A stretch of 64,000 nucleotides of DNA from a virus (Duplodnaviria > Caudoviricetes), in IMG/VR virus record IMGVR_UViG_3300022752_000013; one strand, given 5' to 3'. Shown here piece after piece: positions 9,290-62,783 of this stretch; the stretch's first letter is position 1; each line of letters opens with the position of its first letter. The position numbers were made by a program, and so were the translations under genes. The notes beneath the pieces were generated by a model. It saw nothing but the letters and a program-made list of their open reading frames with translations, was not told the DNA's origin and made no database searches.

Positions 9290-9296
9290 ATAAATA
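9290..9296 (+). promoter_or_regulatory. Late-like promoter of the tail sheath gene
   Basis: ATAAATA, then AAGGAG RBS before the ATG at 9322. Confidence 0.65.
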
Positions 9297-9321: not shown

Positions 9322-12300
9322 ATGGCACTAATTTCCCCAGGTGTACAAGTCACCATCATCGACGAAAGCAACTATCTTTCAGCCGCTACAAATTCGGTAC
9401 CTTACTTTTTGATTGCCACAGCGCAAGACAAGGTATCTGGATCCGGAGTGGGGGTAGCCGCTGGCACATTGGCAGCAAATGCCAATCGAGCCTATTTAAT
9501 TACCAGTCAGAGAGATTTAACTGCGACATTTGGCAATCCTTTCTTTTATAAGACCACCATTGGTACTCCGATCAATGGTTACGAACTCAACGAATACGGT
9601 TTGCTTGCGGCATACTCTGCACTGGGTGTATCAAACCGTGCTTATGTACAACGTTGTGACATTGATTTGACCCAACTCACTGCCAGTTTGGTTCGTCCTA
9701 CTGGCGAACCCGACAACGGTTCTTATTGGTTAGACACAGCCAACACATTATGGGGTATTTTTGAGTGGAATTATACAACCAACACATTTAGTAACCAAGT
9801 GCCAAGCGTGATCACAGATACTGCTAATCTTACCAGTGGTGTTCCTTCTACCAGTTATGGCAGCATTGGTGACTATGCTGTGGTAGCAACCAACACAGCC
9901 AATCCGATCTATTATAAAAATGGTGCTACCACTACCGCTCAAACTAGTTCAACCACACTGAGCAATTTGTACAACACCTGGGTATTGGTGGGTAGTAACG
10001 ACTGGAAATTGAGTTGGCCTACTATCATTGGTGACAATGCAGTGACTACCAATTTGACTGTTGGCAACACATTGGTAATCAATGGTACTTCAGTTGCTGT
10101 TCCTACTCCTACCAACACTGTGGCTGGCCTCAGTGCCGCAATCAACACAGCCGCCATTAGCGGTGTATACAGTGCAGTGATTGATAACAAGTTGTGTTTG
10201 TTTGCTGATGCTGATGCAACTGCTGATGGATCTACCGCTGATGATGGTATTATTGTAATCAACAGTGTTGGTAGTACACCTGCGTTGATTACAACACTGG
10301 GGTTGACTACCAATGATGTTTATTATGCCCCAACATTACAGCAAAGTCCTAGTTATCAAAACCCACGTTGGAATTCAACTGGATCAACACCACGTCCTAC
10401 TGGATCAGTCTGGAACAAAACAAATAGTACCAATCTCGGAACTACCATGGTTGTCAAACAATATTCTACTGCACTGGCAGCGTTTGTTCAACAGTCGGCC
10501 ACGGTATATGCCAATGACCAGACAGCCAATGCAACTCTTGACACCACTGGTGGCAAACTTATTCCTGCAGGAACAACATATACTCAATACAATGTGGACC
10601 CAGAGGTCAATAACGGGCCTACCAGCAATAATCCTTTCAATAATACATACACACTACAAGTTTTTGAAAGATCAGTAGTGGGCGCTACAGTGATCACTGG
10701 GGACAATGATGCAGCCACGTTCACTAATCTGAATACGTTCTACATAATGACTTCCACTGCCAACAGCACTACATTGACAACACCAGTGTTGGCCACTGTG
10801 AATGGAACAACGCCTGCCGCTTTTGTAACAGCAGTGAGTGCGGCGGGTGTGCCCAATGTCAGTGCATCTGTTGACAGCAATGGATACATTGTGCTGACAC
10901 AAACACAAGGTGGAGTAATTCTACTGCAAAATGCTACTGGTACCCCGGTAACGGCCGCAGGATTCAATACCACAGTCACAGGATGCCGTACAGTGTATCT
11001 TGACACAGACACTGTGGCACCGATCACTGCGGCAAATGACACTTGGTTGAATTTAAGCAACTGGGTGGCAGCCACATACACCGCCAGTGACACTGCACCT
11101 GATCAAGACCCAGCAGATGGACGTTACTGGTATTATTCAGCAACCAACCAAGTTGACATCATGATTCAAAGTGGTACAGGTTGGGTTGGCTATCAAAACG
11201 AAACCAATGATGTACGTGGTGATAACCTGAGCCTGACAAATGCAACTGGACCGCTGATTTCTGCCACAGCACCTACTACACAAAGCGATGGAACTCCATT
11301 GGAATATGGTGACATTTGGATTGACACTTCAAATCTTGAACTGTATCCAGTGATCAATCGTTGGGCAAGTGACAACGGCGTGGATCAGTGGAACACAATG
11401 GACAACACAGATCAAACCACACAAAACGGTGTGTTGTTTGCAGATGCTCGCTGGAGTTCTACAGGCACAGTGGATCCTATCACAGGCGCACTACCAACCA
11501 TTACAAGTTTGCTGACCAGCAACTACTTGGACGTGGACGCACCTGACTACACCCTATATCCAACTGGTATGTTGTTGTTTAACACACGCCGTTCAGGATT
11601 TAATGTGAAGTCATTCCAGGTGAATTATTTTAATGCTGCCGATTTCTCATACTCAACCTGGAGTGGCGCAACTGCTTATGCAGTGGGAGATCAAGTGTTG
11701 TACAACACCACCTTGTATGTGGCTATTCAAGCAGGAACCAATCAAAATCCTGCCTCACAAGTTGCATATTGGCAACCATTAGAAACCAACAGTTGGGTCA
11801 CAGCCAGTGGCAATCGTGCTGACGGTGCTCCTAACATGGGACGTTTTGCTCAACGTGCATTGATTGTGGCAGCACTCAAGTCAGGAATTGATACCAGTGT
11901 TACCATAAGAGAAGAACAAGTGCAATTCAATTTGAGTGCATGTACGTCTTATCCAGAGTTGATCCCCAACATGGTAGCACTCAGCAATGAGCGCAACAAC
12001 ACTGTGTTTGTGGTAGGTGATACACCAATGCGTTTGCCAGCATCGGCTGCGGACATTGTGAGTTGGGCAACCAACAACGCAGGAGCAGGATACCCAACAG
12101 GCGATGGCTTGACCACAAGTTCACCTTATCTAGGTGTGTTCTGGCCCAGTTGCCAAACAGTTGATCTTTCAGGATCAGCAGTGGTCACAGCACCAAGCCA
12201 TATGATGGTTCGCACTATTATTCGCAATGACGAAGTTGCTTATCCATGGCTGGCACCAGCAGGCACACGTCGTGGTGTGATTGATAATGCTGATCAAATT

Positions 12301-23516: not shown

Positions 23517-25490
23517 ATGGCAGCAAACTCACCCGGACAACAACTAAACGATTTATTGGTCACTAGAAATTTTGACCCTGAAGCACTAGATGCACGAACT
23601 GGCAAGCCGCCCCTGGACGACCAGGGTGCTCCTGATCCTGAAAATGCGGACATGTTTACATTTGACTGGGTAGCAGACTCCGGCAAGAACTACGGCACAG
23701 TGGTTTGCTTGCTGGGCGCTGACAACAACTTTGAAGTTTATTTTGGCGACAATCTTGGCCGCGGTATGGAGTTTGACGACAAGGCTGACTGGTACGAATT
23801 CCTGGACCAGTTGCGTAACTTTGCCAAACGCAATCTCTTGCGTTACGACCTGCAGAACCTACGTAGACTCAAGTATACTATGGCCGGAATGGCTGCCATC
23901 AAAGAAGGCCTGTTTGAAGGCTACTATGGCAACAAAAAGGTGAGTTATGCTGGTGAGCCCACACAGGCACGACTCATGATCAAACACAATCGCACCCTGG
24001 GTGAAAACGATGCACGTTTCCGCTATGTGGAAAGCCTGTTCATTGAAACAGTGGCAGGCGAAGTGTTCAAAATGCCGTTCAAGAAACTGGCCGGCGGACG
24101 AGCCATGCTGGAACATGTGCGTCACGGTGGCACACCTTATGATGCTCGTGGACAACACATTGTAGAAATTGTTGAACAGATCAATGTGCTGAGTCAGTTC
24201 CGTAGAGCACATCAAGGTCGAGTATTTGAAGGTGCTGCCGGCGAACTGGTAGCAGAAACAACAGAATACTTGAATCGACTGCGTCACAATCTCAAGGCAG
24301 TGAGCAACGATCGCGGTTACACCCAATACTTTGAATCATGGAGCCCGGCTGATGTGTCGGAATCAGATCTCATAGTGGAAGATTTAAAAAGCCTCTTTGT
24401 GGAAACACGTATCGATCCACGCATAGAGCAAGCGTTGCCCATGTTGGCACGAATACAAAAGGAAGCACTAGCCATGAAAGAAGCAGAAATATTTGAATCC
24501 TGGGCCAATCGTATTGTAGAAGGTACCTGGACATTACCGGAAACTCCTGAGCAACAAGATGAACTCAAGATGTTGATGAGTCGACCCTTGACAGTGGGCG
24601 CGGATGGCATGAATGCCACAGAACAACTGTATGGCTTGATTGGTGACGATGAGTTGTTTGACATCATTGGCAACATTGCTGAAGAAAATCCAGATGCTAA
24701 TTGCTGGGATGATCCGCGTGTACAGGACCGACTGGAAGAACTAGGCGTGTACATGGTCACACCAGCAGAACCTGCTCAGGCAGCCGAAACACCTCCCGTG
24801 GCTGAAGGCAGACCAGAAGACTTACCAGGTATTGATTACGACCGTCCTGGTGATGTAAAACGTAAACAACCCGGCGGTGATGATGATCAAAATCCTTATC
24901 CCTACAGTCCAGAAGAAGATGATGACTACTTCCGTGAAATCTTCCGCAAGAAGCGTGAAGCCGCCAAACAGCAAGGCATGGCGGAAGGCAATATGGATGG
25001 TAAAGCAGCCGACATCAAAGGACAGATAGCAGAACTGGAAGCCGAGCAAGAAGAATATGAATTTGGCTCTTATGCCTATGACACGGTCGATGGCGAACTG
25101 CAATATCTTTACGCAAAACTTGATAAAGCGGAAAAGGGTGTGGCGGAAGGGTTGGGTTATAGTCAAGACCCGGCTCAAGCAAAATGGTATCATGAAGGTC
25201 GCAAGGCATTCAAAGGTGGTACTACTGGTAATCTAATACAAGACATCGCCAAGAAACACGGAGTTCCATCTGAGTGGATTGATGCATTCCATGCCGGATA
25301 TAAAGATCAAGAAGGCTTTGGCAAAGATCCTGTAGACGAAGGTGACAACATGAGCACATTCGAACAAGCCCAGTGCAACCAGACCATGGAAGGCGAATAC
25401 TGCCCAGAACACGGCATGTCCGAGTGCGGCAACTACGGCATGTATGAATCACAATTGGCAAGAATCAAAAGCCTAGCACTACTGCGCTAA
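23517..25490 (+). CDS. Hypothetical virion protein with modular acidic C-terminal half
   Basis: ATAAATA 7 nt upstream. Repeated (G)(V/M)AEG motifs. Confidence 0.65.
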   Translation: MAANSPGQQLNDLLVTRNFDPEALDARTGKPPLDDQGAPDPENADMFTFDWVADSGKNYGTVVCLLGADNNFEVYFGDNLGRGMEFDDKADWYEFLDQLRNFAKRNLLRYDLQNLRRLKYTMAGMAAIKEGLFEGYYGNKKVSYAGEPTQARLMIKHNRTLGENDARFRYVESLFIETVAGEVFKMPFKKLAGGRAMLEHVRHGGTPYDARGQHIVEIVEQINVLSQFRRAHQGRVFEGAAGELVAETTEYLNRLRHNLKAVSNDRGYTQYFESWSPADVSESDLIVEDLKSLFVETRIDPRIEQALPMLARIQKEALAMKEAEIFESWANRIVEGTWTLPETPEQQDELKMLMSRPLTVGADGMNATEQLYGLIGDDELFDIIGNIAEENPDANCWDDPRVQDRLEELGVYMVTPAEPAQAAETPPVAEGRPEDLPGIDYDRPGDVKRKQPGGDDDQNPYPYSPEEDDDYFREIFRKKREAAKQQGMAEGNMDGKAADIKGQIAELEAEQEEYEFGSYAYDTVDGELQYLYAKLDKAEKGVAEGLGYSQDPAQAKWYHEGRKAFKGGTTGNLIQDIAKKHGVPSEWIDAFHAGYKDQEGFGKDPVDEGDNMSTFEQAQCNQTMEGEYCPEHGMSECGNYGMYESQLARIKSLALLR

Positions 25491-54036: not shown

Positions 54037-54590
54037 TAGATTCGTATTCTCGGGCTGGGAGAATAACAACAGGCCAACGTCTGCGATTGTTTCATGTTGG
54101 TAGACCAAAAGTTCATGCCTGGCGCCAAACACGCCATGGCCATGAATATCCATTGGATCCGGTTGATCATTGGATCCTTGATAACATTGATTCCGTTGAT
54201 ATCACTGCTGTAGATTTTGCAGGTTGGTATTTAGAACAGTTTGGATTAAAGACAGTGTGCTTAGAATCAGACTGTATCGCCAAATTGTATTGGCCTCAAT
54301 GCCATGTAGAACCTGATGTAATGACCTGGCGCCCAACATACGTGTCTAAAGTCAATCCTGTAATATTTAAGAATCCGTGGTTTCTTCGTTACGCTACCGT
54401 GGATCAGTTTGTTGCATTTTTAGAAACATGGGTACAGTCAACAACAATAATAAGTTTTGAACCCAAGATGATACAACACAATTATCTCAAGTTCAAACTA
54501 CTTGATCTAGTGCGTCCACTGACAACATTTGAGATTGAAGAAATCGATAATAACTTTTGGAAAATATTGCCATGTACAAACACCAAGTAA
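54015..54590 (+). CDS. Hypothetical protein
   Basis: AT-rich ORF; exact start uncertain. Confidence 0.6.
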   Translation: MLRIMQIIDSYSRAGRITTGQRLRLFHVGRPKVHAWRQTRHGHEYPLDPVDHWILDNIDSVDITAVDFAGWYLEQFGLKTVCLESDCIAKLYWPQCHVEPDVMTWRPTYVSKVNPVIFKNPWFLRYATVDQFVAFLETWVQSTTIISFEPKMIQHNYLKFKLLDLVRPLTTFEIEEIDNNFWKILPCTNTK

Positions 54591-55405
54591 TTTTATTTCA
54601 TGCTGGGGCAAGTGGTAACTTTTTGGCAAACTTTTTGATTGTAAATAAGAACTTGCTTGAACCACAATTTCGTATAGATTGGCAACAACATAATACTAAC
54701 ATCTATTTTGCTGGCAACAGTTCCAGTGTTGATCGTCGAATTGTGTTTTTTGATGATGTTGTTGTATTGGATAAAATTTGCAACATATTAGAACAAGGTA
54801 CTCACCAAATAGTCCTGAGTCATTATCTGTCAGTGAGCCGACTACGCAATGTAAAAGAGGAAGTATGGGTGCGAAAGATATATCCTAAGACTAATATTTT
54901 TGGATTGATTAAGAATATACATTTTAAAAAACAAAGTTTAGAGTTTACAGATTATTCAGGTGCTGATTTTAGAACACAGATAGATCAAGCATTTATGATT
55001 ATTGCCGATCACTATCAGATAATAAAACAAGATCAAGATTGCCCAGATGATCTTACTATTGATTTTGGTTTGTTGTATAATGTACAATACCTTGTTGACC
55101 TGTTTGAATCAGTGCATGGGTTCGCTCCAGACAAGTTAAAAATAGATTGGGCACAAACTTATATCGACCAACAATTTGCTACCTGCAATGATTGTGACTA
55201 CAAAGATATGCAACAAATAATTGATCATGTGCAACCTAAAGATTTTTTTGATGTTGCTCTGGTATTGTTTATATACGAAAAAAATCACAACACCGTTGAT
55301 CGAAACAGACTATGGACAATAGATCATCTGCCCGACAATATAAATGATTCGTTGAAGTTTTTTATAACTAACTCTACAAAATACACAATTTTCAATAAGG
55401 ATTAA
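54575..55405 (+). CDS. Hypothetical protein (P-loop/sulfotransferase-like N-terminus, tentative)
   Basis: ILFHAGASGNFL near the N-terminus. AT-rich; start uncertain. Confidence 0.5.
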   Translation, partial: YKHQVILFHAGASGNFLANFLIVNKNLLEPQFRIDWQQHNTNIYFAGNSSSVDRRIVFFDDVVVLDKICNILEQGTHQIVLSHYLSVSRLRNVKEEVWVRKIYPKTNIFGLIKNIHFKKQSLEFTDYSGADFRTQIDQAFMIIADHYQIIKQDQDCPDDLTIDFGLLYNVQYLVDLFESVHGFAPDKLKIDWAQTYIDQQFATCNDCDYKDMQQIIDHVQPKDFFDVALVLFIYEKNHNTVDRNRLWTIDHLPDNINDSLKFFITNSTKYTIFNKD

Positions 55406-56854: not shown

Positions 56855-56928
56855 TATACATTGTTAATTGTATCAATGGTTTATCTAACGCCAATAACCG
56901 ATAAATAAATCAAAGGTCACTGCCTCAA

Positions 56929-57177
56929 ATGCAAAAACGCACCAGAAGTTTGTTAGAAGAATTAGACTCAATGTATGTTGAGCGTGAGCGCCATCTAGTG
57001 ATAGAAAGCCGTGCCAGCAACGTAATAGCCAGTGCTATTAATCTGCTGGAGCAAATTGACGCCGCTTTTCCGCCAGAGCAAGCAGAAAATCTAACCCGTA
57101 AACTGCTCAACGCTATTCGCACTAGAGATGCTGGCCGTTTCGAAAGAACAGTGAGACGTACCCATGCAGATTCATGA
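56929..57177 (+). CDS. Hypothetical protein
   Basis: ATAAATA at 56901. Confidence 0.65.
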   Translation: MQKRTRSLLEELDSMYVERERHLVIESRASNVIASAINLLEQIDAAFPPEQAENLTRKLLNAIRTRDAGRFERTVRRTHADS

Positions 57178-57943
57178 ATTGACTCGAAAACAACTGAATG
57201 AAGTTGATCTGGCTGGACCGAGCGGGCTTTGGTCTGGAATCAAGTCTGCGGCCAAAGCCATGGTACAGCCTGGCGGCGCGAAAGATGCCCTTAGAACAGT
57301 GGCTCCTGGTGCCAATCAAGGACTCGGAGGAACAGCGGCATTGGCAACTAGTGATTTTGCCAAACGTATGCAAGCCCAAAGTACAAACAAAGCATTTGAT
57401 CAAGTGGCAAAAAATTTGCAAGGCAACTGGGAACAACGCAGAGCGGCACAAGTAGGTGTAGCCGCTAAATCTGGTCAACCAATGACACAACAGACTATTG
57501 ATGCATTAATTGATGATTGGTATGCAACCACAGTGATTCCTGTAAATCTAAGGTCCGAAAAAAACACATACATGAATCCATCAGGCGGCCCTGCGCCAGC
57601 AAAAATTGTTTCAACCTTGCAGAACATAAAAAATGCAGAAACGTTACCGGATGCACAAAGACAACAAACACAAGCCACTGAAATTAAAAATTTAGCCGTG
57701 GCAACATCTGCAATGTCACAACTTCTTGCGCAACAAAATCCTCAATTGGCTGCCGCTGCCGCTAAAAGCGCACCCAAAACTGGTAGTGCCCAAGTAGCAC
57801 AAGCAAATATATCAAAAGCGGCTGGAATAAGTTCAACACAATTGTCTGCAATAGAAAAAATTACAGGAGCATTGCCTCCGGTGACCAGTCGTGATCCTAA
57901 CACAATAGCATATCTCCGAGCATTAGGATTTGACGTACAATGA
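57164..57943 (+). CDS. Putative head internal/virion protein
   Basis: MQIHEL...QLNE N-terminus. Ala/Gln-rich. Confidence 0.6.
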   Translation: MQIHELTRKQLNEVDLAGPSGLWSGIKSAAKAMVQPGGAKDALRTVAPGANQGLGGTAALATSDFAKRMQAQSTNKAFDQVAKNLQGNWEQRRAAQVGVAAKSGQPMTQQTIDALIDDWYATTVIPVNLRSEKNTYMNPSGGPAPAKIVSTLQNIKNAETLPDAQRQQTQATEIKNLAVATSAMSQLLAQQNPQLAAAAAKSAPKTGSAQVAQANISKAAGISSTQLSAIEKITGALPPVTSRDPNTIAYLRALGFDVQ

Positions 57944-59865
57944 ACTTATTCGAAGGTGGTAACGTATTTAAAGATGCTGACGGAAACCCACTCACACAAC
58001 GCATCAATCAAACAGATGTACCCAGCACTGTAACATGGCTGGAACAATTAACTGGTCTAGAATTTCCACGTGAGCGTTGGTTGGGTTCAACAGGCAAAGC
58101 ACCCACATCAGGTGACATGGATCTAGCAGTTGATGCCAACGAAATTTCCAAAGAACAATTGGCTGCCAAACTAGAAGCCTGGGCCCGTAGTCATGGCCAA
58201 GATCCTAGAACCTGGGTCAAGAAATCAGGCGAAGTTCACTTGCGTACTCCTATCACAGGCCGTCCCGAACTTGGATATGTACAAACAGACTTTATGTTCT
58301 TCCCTAATCTAGATTGGGGCACATTCTACTACAATCAAACATTTCCATCAGCCTACAAAGGCATGCACCGTGCGGTGCTAATGAGTTCAATTGCCAAGCA
58401 ACTGGGACTTAAAATAGGTGCCAATGGCATGTTCAGTCGTGCCACAAATGAACTTGTGAGTCAAGATCCAGACTATGTGGCCAAGGCCATCTTAGGATCA
58501 AAAGCCACTAGAGAAGACCTGGGTAATGTAGAAAGCATTTACGCATTCTTGGCCCGTGACAAAGATCGCGATGCCAAACTCAAAGACTTCCGTGAGTATC
58601 TAGCCAAAGAAGGACTCAAGGAGCCCACACAACTGGAAGAAAGCGGTGACGTTTATTTCCTGGCACGCCTGCGTGACCGTATTGTAAATCAAGGCATGTA
58701 TGCTTTGGTAGAGGCAGCCGCGCCTACCCCTGCTGCCGCACCTGTGGGTGGCAAAGCCAAGGGCATCGAGCATCTAGAAGATTACGTATTTAGAAATGGC
58801 ACAGCCGGTGTCAAAACAGCACTGGCCATTGTGGATGCCTTCAAAGAAAATTCCAAGACTGCAAGCGTCAAATGGGATGGCAAACCTGCTGTGGTATTTG
58901 GCCGCAAGCCCGACACCGGAGAGTTTGTGTTAACAGATGATGCAGGCTTTACTGCCACCGGCTACAATGGTTTGTTTACCAGTCCTAGAGCCATTGCTGG
59001 CAATATGGCACAGCGTGATGCCAATGCCGAAGCCAAAGGCAACAAAGCAGACCGTGTACAAACACTCTTACCAGTGTATGAAAAAATCTGGCCCTACTTG
59101 GAGGCAGCAACTCCCTCCAACTTCCGTGGTTATGTCAAGGGCGACTTGTTGTATACCACGACACCTCCTGTGGTAGCAGGCAATGTAGAATTCAAACCTA
59201 ACACAGTGGAATATCGTATTCCGTTAAAGAGTGCCCTGGGTACAAGAATTGCCGATAGTGAAGTTGGCGTGGCAGTACACACCATGTATGAGGACGCTGG
59301 CGCTGCCAAACAACCACTCAACAGAGTCAAGTTCAATCCTGTGCCAGGCCTGTTGTTAATCGAACCCATATATGCCAAGTCCGTGGAAATTGAAAATCCC
59401 TACGTAAAAAAGATCAAGAGTCTATTGCGAACAATGGGCCCTGCAATTGACACCTTGTTTAATCCTGCTGAATTACGTGCCGCTAAAATCACTGACTTGG
59501 CCAAATTGGCAGTAGATTATATCAACCGGCGCATCAATCCTGAATACCCTGCTTACACCGGAGACTTTAAAGATCTGGTACCGGGCTTTATGGACTACTT
59601 GAAATCCACGCAAACTCCGCAAAAGTTCCGCAACATCACAGAATACCTGCGTAGTCCTACTTCCAACGAAGGCGCCCTGGCCGCTGCCTTTGTGTTGTTT
59701 GAACTGCTACATGATTTGAAACTGGACCTGCTGGGCAAACTGGATGCACAAGTACCGGGCAACGAAGGCTGGGTGTTTGCCACCCCTGCAGGCTATGGTA
59801 AGGCTGTGAATCGCTTTGATTTCACCGCCAGAAACCGCCAAAGAAACAACCCCACAACCACCTAA
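57940..59865 (+). CDS. Two-domain protein: Pol-beta-superfamily nucleotidyltransferase plus KxDG ligase-like domain (DUF6267-like)
   Basis: LGSTGKAPTSGDMDLAVD...VQTDFM in the N-terminal half. SVKWDGKPAVVFG, GDLLY and EGWV in the C-terminal half. Confidence 0.65.
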   Translation: MNLFEGGNVFKDADGNPLTQRINQTDVPSTVTWLEQLTGLEFPRERWLGSTGKAPTSGDMDLAVDANEISKEQLAAKLEAWARSHGQDPRTWVKKSGEVHLRTPITGRPELGYVQTDFMFFPNLDWGTFYYNQTFPSAYKGMHRAVLMSSIAKQLGLKIGANGMFSRATNELVSQDPDYVAKAILGSKATREDLGNVESIYAFLARDKDRDAKLKDFREYLAKEGLKEPTQLEESGDVYFLARLRDRIVNQGMYALVEAAAPTPAAAPVGGKAKGIEHLEDYVFRNGTAGVKTALAIVDAFKENSKTASVKWDGKPAVVFGRKPDTGEFVLTDDAGFTATGYNGLFTSPRAIAGNMAQRDANAEAKGNKADRVQTLLPVYEKIWPYLEAATPSNFRGYVKGDLLYTTTPPVVAGNVEFKPNTVEYRIPLKSALGTRIADSEVGVAVHTMYEDAGAAKQPLNRVKFNPVPGLLLIEPIYAKSVEIENPYVKKIKSLLRTMGPAIDTLFNPAELRAAKITDLAKLAVDYINRRINPEYPAYTGDFKDLVPGFMDYLKSTQTPQKFRNITEYLRSPTSNEGALAAAFVLFELLHDLKLDLLGKLDAQVPGNEGWVFATPAGYGKAVNRFDFTARNRQRNNPTTT

Positions 59866-59925
59866 GATTTTGCCAATTTCATAAATAAGAGTAGGGCGAG
59901 AGCCTACTTATTAGGAGATTTTAAA

Positions 59926-60357
59926 ATGGCAGTATTTACAAAAACAAACGGTACCACCCAACCAGTATTCCACATGGACACTGGCAATGCGCAAATTGTT
60001 GGAACATCCAACATTGCGGCAACGGGTTCGGTCAACTTTCAAGGACCAAAACTAGACTTTTTCTCAGTGGTGGCTAACGCTTCATTGGTCACAAGTGCTA
60101 ACGTTAACGGTTACATCAACAACATTTTGCAAGCGATTCAAACCAAAGCAACAGTTGCCATGTATCAAGTTAGCCCAGCAGCCCCGACTATCTTGAACTT
60201 GGCTATCTACCCAACTGATGCTTACACAGCCGCAACGCTGTTGACCACGGCTAATACCAGTGCAACAGTTGCTTCCGGTGGTCAAAACATCCAGTTGAAC
60301 AGTGCCGCAGGTAACGCCGCATTCACCACAAGCGCAAGTAACTTCGCTCCAGTCTAA
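59926..60357 (+). CDS. Hypothetical virion protein (decoration-like)
   Basis: ATAAATA at 59881, AGGAGA RBS and own terminator. Ala/Thr/Asn-rich. Confidence 0.65.
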   Translation: MAVFTKTNGTTQPVFHMDTGNAQIVGTSNIAATGSVNFQGPKLDFFSVVANASLVTSANVNGYINNILQAIQTKATVAMYQVSPAAPTILNLAIYPTDAYTAATLLTTANTSATVASGGQNIQLNSAAGNAAFTTSASNFAPV

Positions 60358-60377
60358 TTTTAGATTGCGTGTGATCG

Positions 60378-60407
60378 ACCCTGGACGTAAAAAATCCAGG
60401 GTTTTTT
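60378..60407 (+). terminator. Rho-independent terminator
   Basis: ACCCTGGA...TCCAGGGT followed by a T-run. Confidence 0.8.
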
Positions 60408-60426
60408 GTTGGCCGTAAATACAGCC

Positions 60427-60840
60427 ATGACTACCAGGATTCGTGTGACTACTCAATTTGACTGCACAGCCACAGGGGTCACGGGACACTTTAGAACCAA
60501 TGTGTTGCCATTTGATGATCGTGAAGGTCAATCTGTAACAGATCAAATGACTTGGACTAGATCAAGAAACCAACAACGCAATTGGGAAACCATACTACAG
60601 ATCATTGGCCTGTATACACAGGCACAAGATATTTCGCCTACAGAGCACATCAATGAAAAATGGCAATTTGAATTCTCCACTGATTTTGATGATGTGTTTA
60701 GTGCTCATGGCGATCCATTGGGCTTGCTAAAAACCGCCTGTCGCGGAGTACCAATGTTTTACGACCTAGACACTCAGCCCAAAACTGATCAATTGGATCC
60801 AGACCAGAACATTGAATTTGCCATAGTGGACCATAAATAA
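60427..60840 (+). CDS. Hypothetical protein
   Basis: TAAATA 5 nt before the ATG at 60427. Confidence 0.65.
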   Translation: MTTRIRVTTQFDCTATGVTGHFRTNVLPFDDREGQSVTDQMTWTRSRNQQRNWETILQIIGLYTQAQDISPTEHINEKWQFEFSTDFDDVFSAHGDPLGLLKTACRGVPMFYDLDTQPKTDQLDPDQNIEFAIVDHK

Positions 60841-60843
60841 CGT

Positions 60844-61119
60844 ATGGGAGCACACATGGTTGATACAACTGATATTGAAAAGAAAAGTCTCGAAGCCCAC
60901 GTTGAATTGTGTGCAGAACGCTATCGTGCTCTGGAACTGCAAATAGACAGCGTCAAAGCAGAAATATCCTCTGTAAAAATAGTGGTACAAGAAATGCATG
61001 GCATGATGCACGACATAGTCAACAAACGCAACAATCAAATCATAGGTTGGGGCATAGGAATTATTGGATTTTTAACAGCAACCTTGGGCTATGTGATCTC
61101 AAATTTTGTGCTGAAATGA
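60844..61119 (+). CDS. Coiled-coil plus C-terminal TM protein (XhlA/holin-like)
   Basis: Heptad region, then IIGWGIGIIGFLTATLGYVI. Confidence 0.5.
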   Translation: MGAHMVDTTDIEKKSLEAHVELCAERYRALELQIDSVKAEISSVKIVVQEMHGMMHDIVNKRNNQIIGWGIGIIGFLTATLGYVISNFVLK

Positions 61120-61607
61120 ACGCCAGCCAAAAACTTGCGGCATTGGCCGAGCGAGAGTTGCCTAAATTGCTAGATCATGTGATTGTGGCAGATGGTGAAA
61201 AATACCGTGTGTTTGGCTCATATGTCATGCGTCAAACCACCCAGGGATATTCACTAACTTATCAAGACACGCCGGTGGGAACATTTACCAGCACTAGAAG
61301 CGCAGTGGCCTGGTGTATAGCCGATAAAAACCGTCAATACCGCCTGGCTAATGAAATACAGCACCTGGATTTTACCCTGTTAAGATTGCGCAACGACATT
61401 GAAGTACGTAGCAGTCAAGCCCAAAAAAGTTATGGAATATTTTGGGAAACAGTCAGTGCCAAAGCCGCACACAGGCGAGAACAAAGTCAGCAGATAGAAA
61501 ATGAATTAACAAAATGTATAAATTCGGCTAAATACTGGCAACTTCGAGGAAGCAACAATGAAACTGCAAGAACTGGCCGTAACACGCCCTACAAAACAAA
61601 TCGCTAA
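61116..61607 (+). CDS. Hypothetical protein
   Basis: Start moved to the ATGA overlap at 61116. Confidence 0.6.
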   Translation: MNASQKLAALAERELPKLLDHVIVADGEKYRVFGSYVMRQTTQGYSLTYQDTPVGTFTSTRSAVAWCIADKNRQYRLANEIQHLDFTLLRLRNDIEVRSSQAQKSYGIFWETVSAKAAHRREQSQQIENELTKCINSAKYWQLRGSNNETARTGRNTPYKTNR

Positions 61608-62445
61608 AGTGTTCGAGAGTCACTTTGACCAACGTCTATCTTTTGACTCAATGAACCGTGGCCAAGTGCGCGGCATGCTACAACGTGTGCGTGGCCTGGT
61701 CAGCGAACATCGCGCCAGCCCAGCATTTCATTACAGCGAAAAGAATCCTGCCTATCTAAAACTCATGATGATGGAACAGGCTCTGACACAACAACTTCGC
61801 GAGTATGGTGCTTCCACATCAGGCTCTACTCCTGGTGCACCCGGTGCTACTGCCGCATTGTCGACTGTGCAACAGCAACAGAAAAAGAAACAGATGCAGG
61901 ATGAGATCAAGCAAAAGCAAAAAGAAATTGCCGACTTGCAAAAAGCCATGATGAATCCAACAATGGCAGCAGAAAACAACACAGGCAACTTCTTGCGTGA
62001 ATCAGAAATTCAACAAGCACAAGTGGTATTGGCCGCACAAGACATGGTTGACCGTGTGCAGAAAATGTTGGAAGACACAACAGAAATGCAATTTAAAGAA
62101 TTGCCCGCATTGGTTGATTCAATCAAGAATGAAGTTGGCATGGATCAAGCCGCACAATTCAATGCAGATGCAGCCGCCGCACTGTCAGGACTGGTACAAA
62201 ATTTACAGGCCAGCAAAGGCCAACTGGAAGCCGCACTGGGTGTGGTAACAGGCCAAGGTGCTGGTGCTGTGGTGCCTGGTGCTGAAATGGGCGCAGACAT
62301 GGGTGCCGAGTTAGGTGCAGACATGGGTGCTGAACTAGGCGCAGAGGCCGGGCTTGATGCCGCTGCCGCTGATGCAGGCGCTGAACTTGAACCAGAACCC
62401 GAAGCCACTACACCAGCCGCCAGTTTGGGCCGCGGACGTAGATAA
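61558..62445 (+). CDS. Putative prohead core/scaffold-like protein
   Basis: MKLQE start, Gln/Lys coiled coil, FLRESE motif, GA(D/E)(M/L) tetrapeptide repeats. Confidence 0.55.
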   Translation: MKLQELAVTRPTKQIAKVFESHFDQRLSFDSMNRGQVRGMLQRVRGLVSEHRASPAFHYSEKNPAYLKLMMMEQALTQQLREYGASTSGSTPGAPGATAALSTVQQQQKKKQMQDEIKQKQKEIADLQKAMMNPTMAAENNTGNFLRESEIQQAQVVLAAQDMVDRVQKMLEDTTEMQFKELPALVDSIKNEVGMDQAAQFNADAAAALSGLVQNLQASKGQLEAALGVVTGQGAGAVVPGAEMGADMGAELGADMGAELGAEAGLDAAAADAGAELEPEPEATTPAASLGRGRR

Positions 62446-62783
62446 TGCGTATCGACGAAGTTGGCAACGGCCGGTCAGATGACACAGCCGCTCGACTTTT
62501 AGGCTTGGCCGAATTCTTATTGGGCCGAGCACGAGACACAGGTGGCCAAAAACAAATCAGCATGCAGACTTTTTTGAATCTGGCTCATAACATGCAGATT
62601 GATCTTACCCCAGAAACTCTTCAGAACATGGCCAGCCAGGCACCTCTCAATGGCGTGTTCATGCCCATTGAACCCAATTCGGGTGTGATCAAATTCAAAG
62701 GCAATGATTCTGGTACTGTGCCCATGCCGGTGAACCAAGCCCAAGACATTGTGGCTGCGGCAGCCAAACGAGCATTAAAATAA
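62445..62783 (+). CDS. Hypothetical head-associated protein
   Basis: MRIDE start; TAATG-coupled. Confidence 0.6.
   Translation: MRIDEVGNGRSDDTAARLLGLAEFLLGRARDTGGQKQISMQTFLNLAHNMQIDLTPETLQNMASQAPLNGVFMPIEPNSGVIKFKGNDSGTVPMPVNQAQDIVAAAAKRALK

Follow-up and report, generated by a model that had tools for sequence, protein, structure and literature searches.

Gene Organization of the Locus

The window analyzed here is a stretch of 64,000 nucleotides from an uncultured giant Caudoviricetes phage (IMG/VR record IMGVR_UViG_3300022752_000013), and its own record is a 130-kb fragment, 37% complete, which carries 173 ORFs and lacks head genes. The gene under study, P0001, has its ATG start in a 4-nt overlap with the stop of the preceding gene, and it lies in a three-gene unit. 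The unit and its surroundings have the following features.

57940..59865, + strand: two-domain gene P0001, an intact ORF of 641 aa
56901..56907, + strand: ATAAATA late-promoter-like box, 22 nt 5' of the first gene of the three-gene unit
56929..57177, + strand: small protein of 82 aa, first gene of the unit, matching phrog_11854 ("virion structural protein", E 1.8e-15)
57164..57943, + strand: protein of 259 aa starting MQIHE, an M-x-[L/I]-x-E start
59890..59908, + strand: hairpin 3' of the P0001 stop, just past the next ATAAATA box (59881)
61558..62445, + strand: protein of 295 aa starting MKLQE, matching phrog_14154 ("virion structural protein", E 8e-14)
62445..62783, + strand: protein of 112 aa starting MRIDE, an M-x-I-x-E start kept in relatives

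The ATAAATA sequence is also found in the window 5' of the tail sheath gene (box at 9290, gene at 9322), of the tail tube gene and of a virion-protein gene at 23517. A preliminary description of this DNA had placed P0001 in a late-promoter operon, which the box at 56901 makes plausible, although the exact T4 late box TATAAATA is absent near the P0001 gene and only the shorter ATAAATA is seen there. The hairpin downstream of P0001 has a weak T-run, and its role as a terminator is uncertain. The 82-aa protein also matches a PA5oct homologue annotated as a virion structural protein. Family searches with the 259-aa protein returned no match; its relatives keep the start motif and range in length from 161 to 488 aa, and the M-x-L-x-E start of the 295-aa protein is likewise kept in relatives. 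Orthology of the 82-aa and 259-aa neighbors with gp68 and gp67 of Atu_ph07 was considered and rejected, and the absence of BLASTP similarity between them reduces the correspondence to a positional analogy. A DnaB-like helicase lies just upstream of the P0001 gene, and a canonical ATP-dependent ligase of 457 aa is encoded elsewhere in the same 130-kb record.

A position check by script located every motif of the preliminary description where it had been reported, within an intact ORF. The putative catalytic motifs fall at residues 48–61 (LGSTGKAPTSGDMD), 116–119 (TDFM), 311–314 (KWDG), 401–405 (GDLLY) and 609–612 (EGWV), and the candidate protease sites at residues 1–5 (MNLFE), 231–234 (QLEE) and 255–258 (ALVE), the last followed by AAAPTPAAAP at residues 259–268.

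The N-Terminal Domain

The N-terminal half of P0001 was delimited by structure prediction and comprises the following features.

57955..58641, + strand: mini family-X polymerase-like domain, residues 6–234, with palm, thumb and two extra helices
58081..58122, + strand: hGS-x8-DxD motif, residues 48–61 (D59, D61), at least 90% conserved in 68 sequences
58288..58290, + strand: third carboxylate, D117, in VQTDFMF, at least 90% conserved

Sequence searches place this half in no named family. Pfam returned no family for it, P0001 had no match to the PolX profiles DNA_pol_B_palm and DNA_pol_B_thumb at E ≤1, its only PHROG match has no function, and neither single-sequence nor profile searches of the N half against PDB sequences gave anything usable. 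Among 68 diverse N-domain sequences, sub-threshold matches to DNA_pol_B_palm were seen in three relatives (best E 0.0019). The RlaP family is not among the 25 families matched by these sequences at E ≤10, and membership in it was rejected.

The AlphaFold2 model of the N domain (pLDDT 91.6) is more informative. When compared with 48,161 PDB chains using VIA, its top 10 matches are all PolX enzymes. The alignment with Pol beta (Z 11.4, rmsd 3.0, 163 residues aligned) spans residues 4–198 of the model and 102–335 of Pol beta, that is, palm and thumb, and the ASFV Pol X is matched over 155 of its 176 residues (Z 9.7) at an identity of about 12%. Other nucleotidyltransferases reach at most Z 6.9 in the same search, over some 87 residues of the palm only. 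This holds for CCA-adding, poly(A) and TUTase enzymes, which have no match to the model beyond the palm (Z ≤6.9), and for CD-NTases, which align at Z 5–6 through the palm alone. Foldseek searches of the PDB and of AFDB clusters concur with a PolX fold. The 8-kDa dRP-lyase domain and the helix-hairpin-helix fingers are absent from the N domain; with the domain starting at residue 6 and the catalytic motif at 48–61, there is no room for either of them.

Across the 68 sequences, conservation reaches at least 90% at eight positions (G49, G52, S57, D59, D61, Q115, D117, and M119), and G49, S50, D59, D61, and D117 are all present in the palm of P0001. The Pol-beta nucleotidyltransferase fold first proposed for this half is hence borne out by the predicted structure and fold search, and can be sharpened to a PolX palm and thumb: residues 6–234 are confidently modeled as a minimal family-X polymerase-like fold consisting of these two subdomains only.

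The C-Terminal Domain

The C-terminal half belongs to the Pfam family DUF6267 (PF19782), with a match of 97.1 bits against a gathering cut-off of 27. Its residue numbers in P0001 are those of the domain alignment plus 265.

58765..59862, + strand: DUF6267 domain, residues 276–641 (Pfam PF19782, E 1.8e-27)
58870..58881, + strand: motif I, KWDG, with K311 as predicted AMP acceptor; K, D and G invariant in 45 sequences
59140..59154, + strand: motif III-like GDLLY; G401 and D402 at least 90% conserved, on a strand
59764..59775, + strand: motif IV, EGWV; E609, G610 and V612 invariant
59800..59814, + strand: motif V-like K-x-V-x-R (K621, R625), invariant

No mention of DUF6267 was found in any paper of the library searched. 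When 45 DUF6267 sequences were compared with the DNA_ligase_A_M, DNA_ligase_aden, RNA_ligase, and RNA_lig_T4_1 profiles, no match was obtained at E ≤10, and single-sequence and profile searches of the C half against PDB sequences gave nothing usable. The nearest named Atlas cluster outside DUF6267 has RNA_ligase in 48% of its members, which is a weak lead (score 0.77).

The predicted structure (pLDDT 92.3) points to the lysine-AMP ligases. Of the 48,161 chains in the VIA search, the 38 that score best are nearly all RNA ligases, DNA ligases, or capping enzymes (Z 8.1–4.7, 143–195 residues aligned), headed by the Naegleria Rnl (Z 8.1), the T. brucei REL1 (Z 7.4), and the T4 Rnl2 (Z 7.0). DNA ligases lie within one Z unit of the RNA ligases, and the Foldseek E-values for the model are weak (0.007 or higher). 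The motifs are ordered on the strands of a nucleotidyltransferase fold, with GDLLY at 132–140, an F/Y motif IIIa at 150–163, EGWV at 345–350, and K-x-V-x-R at 353–358 (C-domain numbering). The latter departs from the K-x-K form of motif V, and the domain ends 16 residues past it, leaving no OB domain or motif VI. Beyond the fold, the model adds just one element, a helical insert of about 120 aa (C-domain residues 221–339).

Across the 45 diverse C-domain sequences, K311, D313, G314, E609, G610, V612, K621, V623, and R625 are invariant. The putative catalytic residues of both halves are conserved across diverse relatives (68 N-domain and 45 C-domain sequences). The ligase- and capping-type nucleotidyltransferase fold that it had read from KWDG, GDLLY, and EGWV is recovered by structure prediction and fold search. 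The best explanation of the modeled fold and its motifs is that DUF6267 constitutes a new, OB-less branch of the lysine-AMP ligase and capping enzyme superfamily.

Distribution and Domain Architecture

Full-length relatives of P0001, with identities of 67–95%, were found at 453 IMG/VR loci and among thousands of metagenome proteins. P0001 itself has two domains only; in its multidomain relatives (600–1,308 aa), the N domain is joined by DUF6267, CTP_transf_like, NT5C, DUF5661, Amidoligase_2, ART-PolyVal, or Tad3, and DUF6267 is present, in either order, in 39 of 59 multidomain proteins with the N domain. DUF6267 is encoded by at least 466 sequenced phage genomes, mostly of T4-like cyanophages, and in many phages a cytidylyltransferase-like enzyme adjoins it or is fused to it. 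Stand-alone DUF6267 in the Kyanoviridae is found in cyanophages and in the pelagiphage HTVC008M, and the gene of this family lies within the gp43-uvsX-gp41-mazG module. Two candidate split forms of the fusion were discarded: the gene upstream of the DUF6267 gene in HTVC008M is not PolX-like, and gp063 of Atu_ph07 is not DUF6267.

Searches for a canonical ATP- or NAD-dependent DNA ligase in HTVC008M, S-RIM8, S-PM2, and Syn1 were negative, and DUF6267 could hence be the replicative ligase of these phages. This role is rejected for the present phage, because its record encodes the 457-aa canonical ligase.

Candidate Processing Sites and Possible Virion Association

Two stretches of P0001 outside the folded domains carry the candidate sites for a T4-type prohead protease.

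57940..57954, + strand: MNLFE, residues 1–5, predicted propeptide with an L-x-E site, a conserved border site
58642..58764, + strand: linker, residues 235–275, with a conserved helix (FLARLRDRIVNQGM), LEE/S and LVE/A sites, and an Ala/Pro stretch

Both are predicted with low confidence in the models (pLDDT 57–71 for the linker and below 50 for residues 1–3), and the disordered N-terminus and linker hold four of the seven [L/I]-x-E sites of the protein. The propeptide ranges from 5 to 9 aa in relatives. In 111 of the 122 instances of the N domain, among them every one of the 34 internal junctions, an [L/I]-x-E tripeptide directly precedes the GGN at the domain border, and nine of the 11 exceptions have their own start, M-GGN or M-SGN, at precisely this point. 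Ahead of DUF6267, an h-x-E site is present in 49 of 50 relatives. Furthermore, M-x-[L/I]-x-E starts occur in four of the 173 ORFs of the record, all of them here and no more than 5.6 kb apart (upper-bound P ~3e-4). The gp21-type sites suggested from the P0001 sequence are thus conserved at both domain borders; cleavage at them is deduced from the motifs, and the tripeptide could instead cap the domains structurally.

Homologues of the N domain have been detected in virions of two phages. In Atu_ph07, gp65 (E 9e-18) was identified in virions by 10 unique peptides with 36.8% coverage (PMC6102473, Table S5), and in PA5oct, gp253 (hhalign probability 99.2%) is annotated as "structural protein, ESI-MS/MS" from CsCl-purified virions. 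Both consist of the polymerase-like domain only, without a propeptide, and both occupy a like position, in a cluster of virion proteins right after a DnaB-like helicase. Pfam searches for a prohead protease and a major capsid protein gave no match in the 130-kb record, owing to its being a fragment. An S77 prohead protease (Peptidase_S77, E 1e-24) is encoded by a relative (G003) whose P0001 homologue is 67% identical, and also by Atu_ph07. In the cyanophage S-PM2, some of whose genes are annotated as virion structural, the annotation of the DUF6267 gene is only hypothetical. The capsid packaging put forward in the preliminary description hence finds indirect support in two virion proteomes, in the conserved border sites and in the prohead protease of a relative; the proteomic support extends to the polymerase-like half and not to the ligase-like one. 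Probably, P0001 enters the phage head, is cleaved into its parts and reaches the host together with the DNA, as a fill-and-seal repair kit.

Discussion

The domain assignments, the conserved border sites, and the virion homologues can be brought together in a model that we give about an even chance of being correct, in which P0001 is a late polyprotein that joins a mini-PolX to a ligase-like enzyme, is packaged in the head, cleaved and ejected, and serves in gap filling and nick sealing. According to this model, P0001 would be made late and built into the prohead, and a T4-type prohead protease would cut it after the Glu of [L/I]-x-E at residue 5 and at linker residues 234 and/or 258, to yield, from the full-length protein of 70.7 kDa, a polymerase of ~26 kDa and a ligase-like enzyme of ~42 kDa. 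Both enzymes would exit the capsid along with the genome. Once inside the cell, short gaps would be filled by the polymerase, leaving the nick for the ligase to seal. The most likely substrate would be the incoming phage DNA, before any phage gene expression.

The PolX-type thumb of the predicted structure favors templated nucleic acid synthesis, and hence repair, over the protein AMPylation or interference with nucleotide signals that had also been contemplated, and the role at entry is most likely gap filling and nick sealing of nucleic acid, be it DNA or RNA. A second DNA ligase is not obviously needed, because the phage has a canonical ATP-dependent one, and the absent OB domain and slightly better RNA-ligase matches of the C-domain model fit an RNA substrate equally well.

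The same domains and the same delivery could serve to repair RNA, with lost nucleotides restored and the breaks resealed in tRNAs or other RNAs that host anticodon nucleases have cut; as translation itself is then the target, the enzymes would have to be made beforehand. We regard this as unlikely, even if several observations agree with it. In structure, the C domain comes closest to nick-sealing RNA ligases (Z 8.1, 7.4, and 7.0), which it also resembles in being without an OB domain; the nearest named Atlas cluster (48% RNA_ligase) gives a weak lead (score 0.77) in the same direction; the phage already has a canonical DNA ligase; some of the fusions include HAD phosphatase-like (NT5C) domains that could heal 3' ends; and jumbo phages pair a Pol-beta nucleotidyltransferase, RlaP, with RNA ligases for RNA repair (PMC7824862). 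Against an RNA substrate, however, the N domain matches PolX DNA polymerases, thumb included, and not the CCA-adding, poly(A), or TUTase enzymes, no N-domain member matches the Pfam RlaP family even at E 10, DNA ligases follow the RNA ligases within one Z unit, and no kinase or 2',3'-cyclic phosphodiesterase partner is seen in the gene cluster.

It is likewise rather improbable that P0001 is an unpackaged, cytoplasmic enzyme of late repair or replication, encoded near replisome genes, with its [L/I]-x-E tripeptides acting as structural N-caps. The DnaB-like helicase just upstream and the Kyanoviridae DUF6267 in the gp43-uvsX-gp41-mazG module would suit such an enzyme, as would the negative ligase searches in HTVC008M, S-RIM8, S-PM2, and Syn1 and the S-PM2 DUF6267, which is not annotated as a virion protein. 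The Atu_ph07 virions, too, were purified by PEG only, and a few replication proteins were present among them. Yet the N-domain homologue is found with good coverage in two independent virion proteomes, one of them from CsCl-purified particles, and the homologues so detected sit among neighboring virion proteins. Proteins that start exactly with M-GGN show that the domain can fold without the L-x-E tripeptide; moreover, M-x-[L/I]-x-E starts are restricted to this gene cluster, and a late-type promoter box lies 5' of the unit. Lastly, a counter-defence role as a "polyvalent" injected protein, with the nucleotidyltransferases acting on host proteins (AMPylation) or small molecules (nucleotide signals), would accommodate the variable arrays of the N domain with ART-PolyVal, the Thoeris inhibitor Tad3, CTP_transf_like, NT5C, and Amidoligase_2, which resemble polyvalent phage proteins (PMC5512222), as well as the link of DUF6267 to cytidylyltransferase-like enzymes that a plain nick sealer leaves unexplained, but it is very unlikely, given that the PolX thumb and the full set of ligase motifs point to polynucleotide substrates and that CD-NTases align at only Z 5–6, through the palm alone.

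Several known systems resemble P0001 in part. ASFV Pol X (174 aa) pairs with a viral ligase for short-gap repair and, like the N domain of P0001, has a palm and a thumb only, the lyase and finger domains being absent from both; in ASFV, however, each enzyme has a gene of its own, and the ligase is of the canonical ATP-dependent DNA type, OB domain included. In T4, Alt is an ADP-ribosyltransferase, and no T4 head protein is known to be a polymerase or a ligase. Alt and other T4 internal head proteins share with P0001 short N-terminal propeptides, cut by the prohead protease after Glu, and are ejected into the host, whereas for P0001 the processing is read from motifs only. The Alt propeptide has 7 residues (PMC9026906). 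The PgVPolX protein of Phaeocystis globosa virus 16T is a PolX-ligase fusion whose gap filling and nick sealing have been demonstrated biochemically (PMC5537341), and it likewise has a Pol beta-like core and a ligase domain in one polypeptide. It belongs, however, to a eukaryotic giant virus, has an NAD+-dependent LigA-type ligase and dRP/AP lyase activity, and neither packaging nor protease processing has been proposed for it (PMC5537341), whereas P0001 lacks the 8-kDa lyase domain and its ligase half, DUF6267, is an unrelated branch that has KWDG and no OB domain. The RlaP of jumbo phages, together with Rnl1 or Rnl2, has been proposed to restore nucleotides before ligation (PMC7824862). The likeness is functional only, a Pol beta-superfamily nucleotidyltransferase coupled to a lysine-AMP ligase in large phages, since the N domain of P0001 has a PolX thumb and its ligase is DUF6267, not Rnl1 or Rnl2. 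Polyvalent proteins are variable arrays of enzymatic domains presumed to accompany the DNA into the host (Iyer et al., 2017; PMC5512222), and relatives of P0001 also hold variable domain arrays, including ART-PolyVal; the polyvalent proteins described there are not PolX-like, and DUF6267 is not described among them.

A broader reading, which we offer tentatively and consider doubtful as a whole, is that DUF6267 represents a new family of nick-sealing ligases devoid of an OB domain, that giant lake phages package it with a mini-PolX, to be released by the protease and ejected to mend the incoming genome ahead of any phage gene expression, and that the stand-alone DUF6267 of the Kyanoviridae is their missing replicative ligase. 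The mending envisaged here covers nicks, gaps, or breaks inflicted by defence systems. The known injected proteins of phages include RNA polymerases, ADP-ribosyltransferases, and anti-restriction proteins, but a DNA-repair polymerase with a ligase is not known among them. If the reading is correct, these phages would carry a pre-loaded repair kit that works ahead of phage gene expression. The survival of very large genomes, despite damage accumulated in sunlit water or an initial attack by host nucleases, could be explained in part by such a kit. DUF6267 would also gain a function, and the family may be the ligase seemingly absent from marine T4-like phages. Lastly, the conserved [L/I]-x-E borders would provide a simple rule to predict head-packaged cargo in these uncultured phages.

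Gene Context of P0001

The 641-aa open reading frame of P0001 is intact, and a position check located every motif string listed in the preliminary description where it had been placed. It closes a tightly packed three-gene unit that directly follows a DnaB-like replicative helicase gene (phrog_19, E 7e-71):

56929-57177, gene 1 of the unit
57164-57943, gene 2, between gene 1 and P0001
57940-59865 (+), gene 3, P0001

The window belongs to an IMG/VR virus record of 130 kb with an estimated completeness of 37%, which puts the phage at roughly 350 kb and among the jumbo phages; no head genes are present in this incomplete record. An ATAAATA box precedes the unit, and like boxes precede the genes for the tail sheath, the tail tube and a virion protein. 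On the + strand the boxes occur at window positions 9290, 12865, 23503, 39152, 56901, 59881 and 60833, each 10-45 nt ahead of a start codon; the genes concerned are those for the tail sheath, the tail tube and a virion protein, plus several unknown ones. ATAAATA is likely the late-promoter core of the phage; 15 matches occur, against 8.6 expected. Just past the next late-type box, a 6-bp GC-containing hairpin (59890-59908) lies between the P0001 stop codon and the following gene; its weak T-run makes a terminator role doubtful.

Structural Assignment of the Two Domains

At the sequence level, the N-terminal half (residues 6-234) matches no Pfam family, a PHROG without assigned function and no PDB sequence. 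Its relatives, recovered as 583 representative clusters in an exhaustive HMMER search, carry the domain alone (about 225-290 aa) or at either end of longer proteins, which reach 1,308 aa. Across 68 aligned, diverse members, G49, G52, S57, D59, D61, Q115, D117 and M119 are conserved in at least 90% of sequences and correspond to the hGS...DxD plus third-carboxylate signature. The AlphaFold2 model built on this alignment (pLDDT 91.6) was compared in an all-against-representatives structural search, and family-X DNA polymerases take all ten top places: Pol beta (Z 11.4, rmsd 3.0, 163 residues aligned, spanning Pol beta 102-335), African swine fever virus (ASFV) Pol X (Z 9.7, 155/176 residues aligned), Leishmania Pol beta, Pol lambda, TdT, Pol mu and the Thermus and Deinococcus PolX enzymes among them. 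All other Pol-beta-superfamily enzymes, comprising TUTases, poly(A) polymerases, CD-NTases, MenT and CCA-adding enzymes, reach Z ≤6.9 over about 87 palm-only residues, and Foldseek agrees on the PolX family in both PDB and AFDB clusters. DNA_pol_B_palm is the commonest weak Pfam match (3 of 68 relatives, best E 0.0019), and NTP_transf_2, DNA_pol_B_palm or DNA_pol_B_thumb appear in a minority of members of the domain's Atlas neighbours. The Pol-beta signature and fold proposed in the preliminary description are borne out by the model and by the conserved catalytic positions. The N-terminal half is predicted to be a minimal PolX-like palm and thumb, too diverged for curated sequence models and, like ASFV Pol X, devoid of 8-kDa and fingers domains.

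The C-terminal half matches Pfam DUF6267 (E 1.8e-27). Across 45 diverse DUF6267 sequences, E280, D281, K311, D313, G314, G321, Y425, G434, K594, E609, G610, V612, K621, V623, R625 and F628 are invariant and G401 and D402 nearly so (alignment numbers plus 265). Nearly all of the best 38 structural matches to the model of this half (pLDDT 92.3) are lysine-AMP nucleotidyltransferases: the Naegleria nick-sealing RNA ligase (Z 8.1), T. brucei REL1 (Z 7.4), Sulfolobus DNA ligase (Z 7.2), T4 Rnl2 (Z 7.0), T4 Rnl1 and fungal Trl1 (Z 6.8), T4 DNA ligase (Z 6.6) and capping enzymes (about Z 5.2). Although the Z scores are modest and the Foldseek E-values weak, hardly any other family appears among these matches. 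The model places the conserved residues on strands in the canonical order, KWDG (motif I), GDLLY (III), aromatics (IIIa), EGWV (IV) and K-x-V-x-R (V), which upholds the ligase-like character suggested beforehand; a helical insert, about 120 residues long, lies ahead of motif IV. Since the chain ends 16 residues past motif V, there is no OB domain, unlike in DNA ligases and capping enzymes, and RNA ligases are closer in this respect. On the basis of the model, this half is filed under the lysine-AMP nucleotidyltransferase superfamily and assigned to no known ligase family.

Domain Linkage and Partners

DUF6267 is also found in 39 of the 59 multidomain proteins identified through the N domain, in either order, and the fused form occurs in 453 confirmed IMG/VR loci and thousands of metagenome proteins; judged from these architectures, the two domains belong together. 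Neither DUF6267 nor the P0001-type fusion is described in the literature searched; repair fusions of PolX with a ligase are known as a kind, and so is processed cargo packaged in the head. The N domain is also combined with CTP_transf_like (12/59), NT5C-type HAD phosphatase, DUF5661, Amidoligase_2, ART-PolyVal and Tad3, an inhibitor of Thoeris. In the relatives' proteins P0203, P0147, P0170 and P0174, the PolX-like domain stands in long arrays with Tad3, ART-PolyVal, NT5C, DUF5661 and Amidoligase_2, resembling polyvalent proteins (Iyer et al., PMC5512222), and one array member weakly matches crAss-like phage cargo protein 2 (E 0.0012). A cytidylyltransferase-like (CTP_transf_like) enzyme is recurrently fused to or adjoins DUF6267 (S-PM2, L089:4989-6768; Syn1, L090:3980-5736; relatives' proteins P0202, P0216, P0188 and P0222), and a 'cytitidyltransferase' neighbours DUF6267 in S-PM2, Syn1, ACG-2014i and S-CAM1. 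This link is not accounted for by a plain nick sealer.

Proposed Head Packaging and Processing

Four indirect lines of evidence agree in pointing to P0001 as a head-packaged protein. The homologues detected in virions are those of the N domain. Atu_ph07 gp65 (29% identity, E 9e-18) was recovered from virions (10 unique peptides, 36.8% coverage) and is encoded inside the virion-protein block gp55-gp69, beside helicase gp70 (PMC6102473 Table S5). PA5oct gp253 (hhalign probability 99.2%, E 1e-19), annotated as 'structural protein, ESI-MS/MS' from CsCl-purified virions, occupies the same position, in the order helicase, small virion protein, virion cluster. P0001 may instead not be virion cargo: the S-PM2 DUF6267 gene carries no virion-protein annotation, and the Atu_ph07 preparation was PEG-purified only and also contained some replication proteins (PMC6102473). 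Against this stands the detection of both homologues in virion proteomes. Genes for a Peptidase_S77 occur in a relative with a 67%-identical homologue (E 1e-24) and in Atu_ph07, and the late-type ATAAATA box ahead of the P0001 unit adds indirect evidence on timing.

Prohead proteases of the T4 type cleave behind the Glu of an L/I-x-E context and take off short N-terminal propeptides. The motif [L/I/V]-x-E directly precedes the N domain in 111 of 122 instances, including all 34 internal junctions (P3 Leu in 83, P3 Ile in 25, P1 Glu in 111), and nine of the 11 exceptions start M-GGN or M-SGN exactly at the domain border, as do the virion-detected homologues. Conserved yet outside the fold, the tripeptide fits a processing site. 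Leaders in relatives span 5-9 residues and always end in L-x-E; the T4 Alt propeptide removed by the prohead protease has 7 (PMC9026906). An h-x-E site also precedes DUF6267 in 49 of 50 cases, most commonly as h-x-E-[GSA]-[AGP]-R just ahead of an I-x-H-x-E-D motif. P0001 contains seven [L/I]-x-E strings, four of them in its disordered N-terminus or linker, and the predicted products are residues 6-234 (25.6 kDa) and 259-641 (41.7 kDa).

Starts of the form M-x-[L/I]-x-E occur in four of the 173 ORFs of the 130-kb record, all in one 5.6-kb cluster (window 57164-62783; upper-bound P about 3e-4), and are kept in relatives:

57164-57943, 259-aa ORF (161-488 aa across relatives)
57940-59865 (+), P0001
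61558-62445, ORF
62445-62783, ORF

All four are candidates for head-packaged cargo, each carrying a propeptide of 5 residues. The helicase surroundings vary among close relatives, with differing 160-373-aa ORFs before or after the helicase (window 54557-55405; equivalent position in relatives' loci L011, L023, L043, L055 and L085), and look like a gene-exchange hot spot beside the conserved cargo cluster.

Proposed Function

The reading favored here is that P0001 would supply a fill-and-seal pair of enzymes that travels with the genome. At the level of the model, the PolX thumb points to synthesis along a primer-template and the ligase partner to sealing. In ASFV, a mini Pol X is likewise paired with a ligase. 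The PolX-ligase fusion of Phaeocystis globosa virus, moreover, has been shown biochemically to fill gaps and seal nicks (PMC5537341).

The substrate of the pair may be DNA or RNA, and several observations speak for RNA. The phage's own record encodes, outside the window, a canonical ATP-dependent DNA ligase of 457 aa (G000:C1:49326-50699, locus L004; DNA_ligase_A_M, E 1.6e-21), the C domain has no OB fold, its scores are marginally highest for RNA ligases, and in jumbo phages RlaP NTases work alongside RNA ligases (PMC7824862). The N domain, however, resembles DNA polymerases and not RNA-end NTases.

A DNA-ligase role for the DUF6267 family fits its distribution in the Kyanoviridae. The four genomes tested (HTVC008M, S-RIM8, S-PM2 and Syn1) all carry a stand-alone DUF6267 within the gp43-uvsX-gp41-mazG replication module and lack a canonical DNA ligase of either the ATP- or the NAD-dependent type; the replicative ligase missing from these phages may be DUF6267. 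In the fill-and-seal reading of P0001, the pair would arrive in the cell with the genome, the PolX-like half filling and the ligase-like half sealing.
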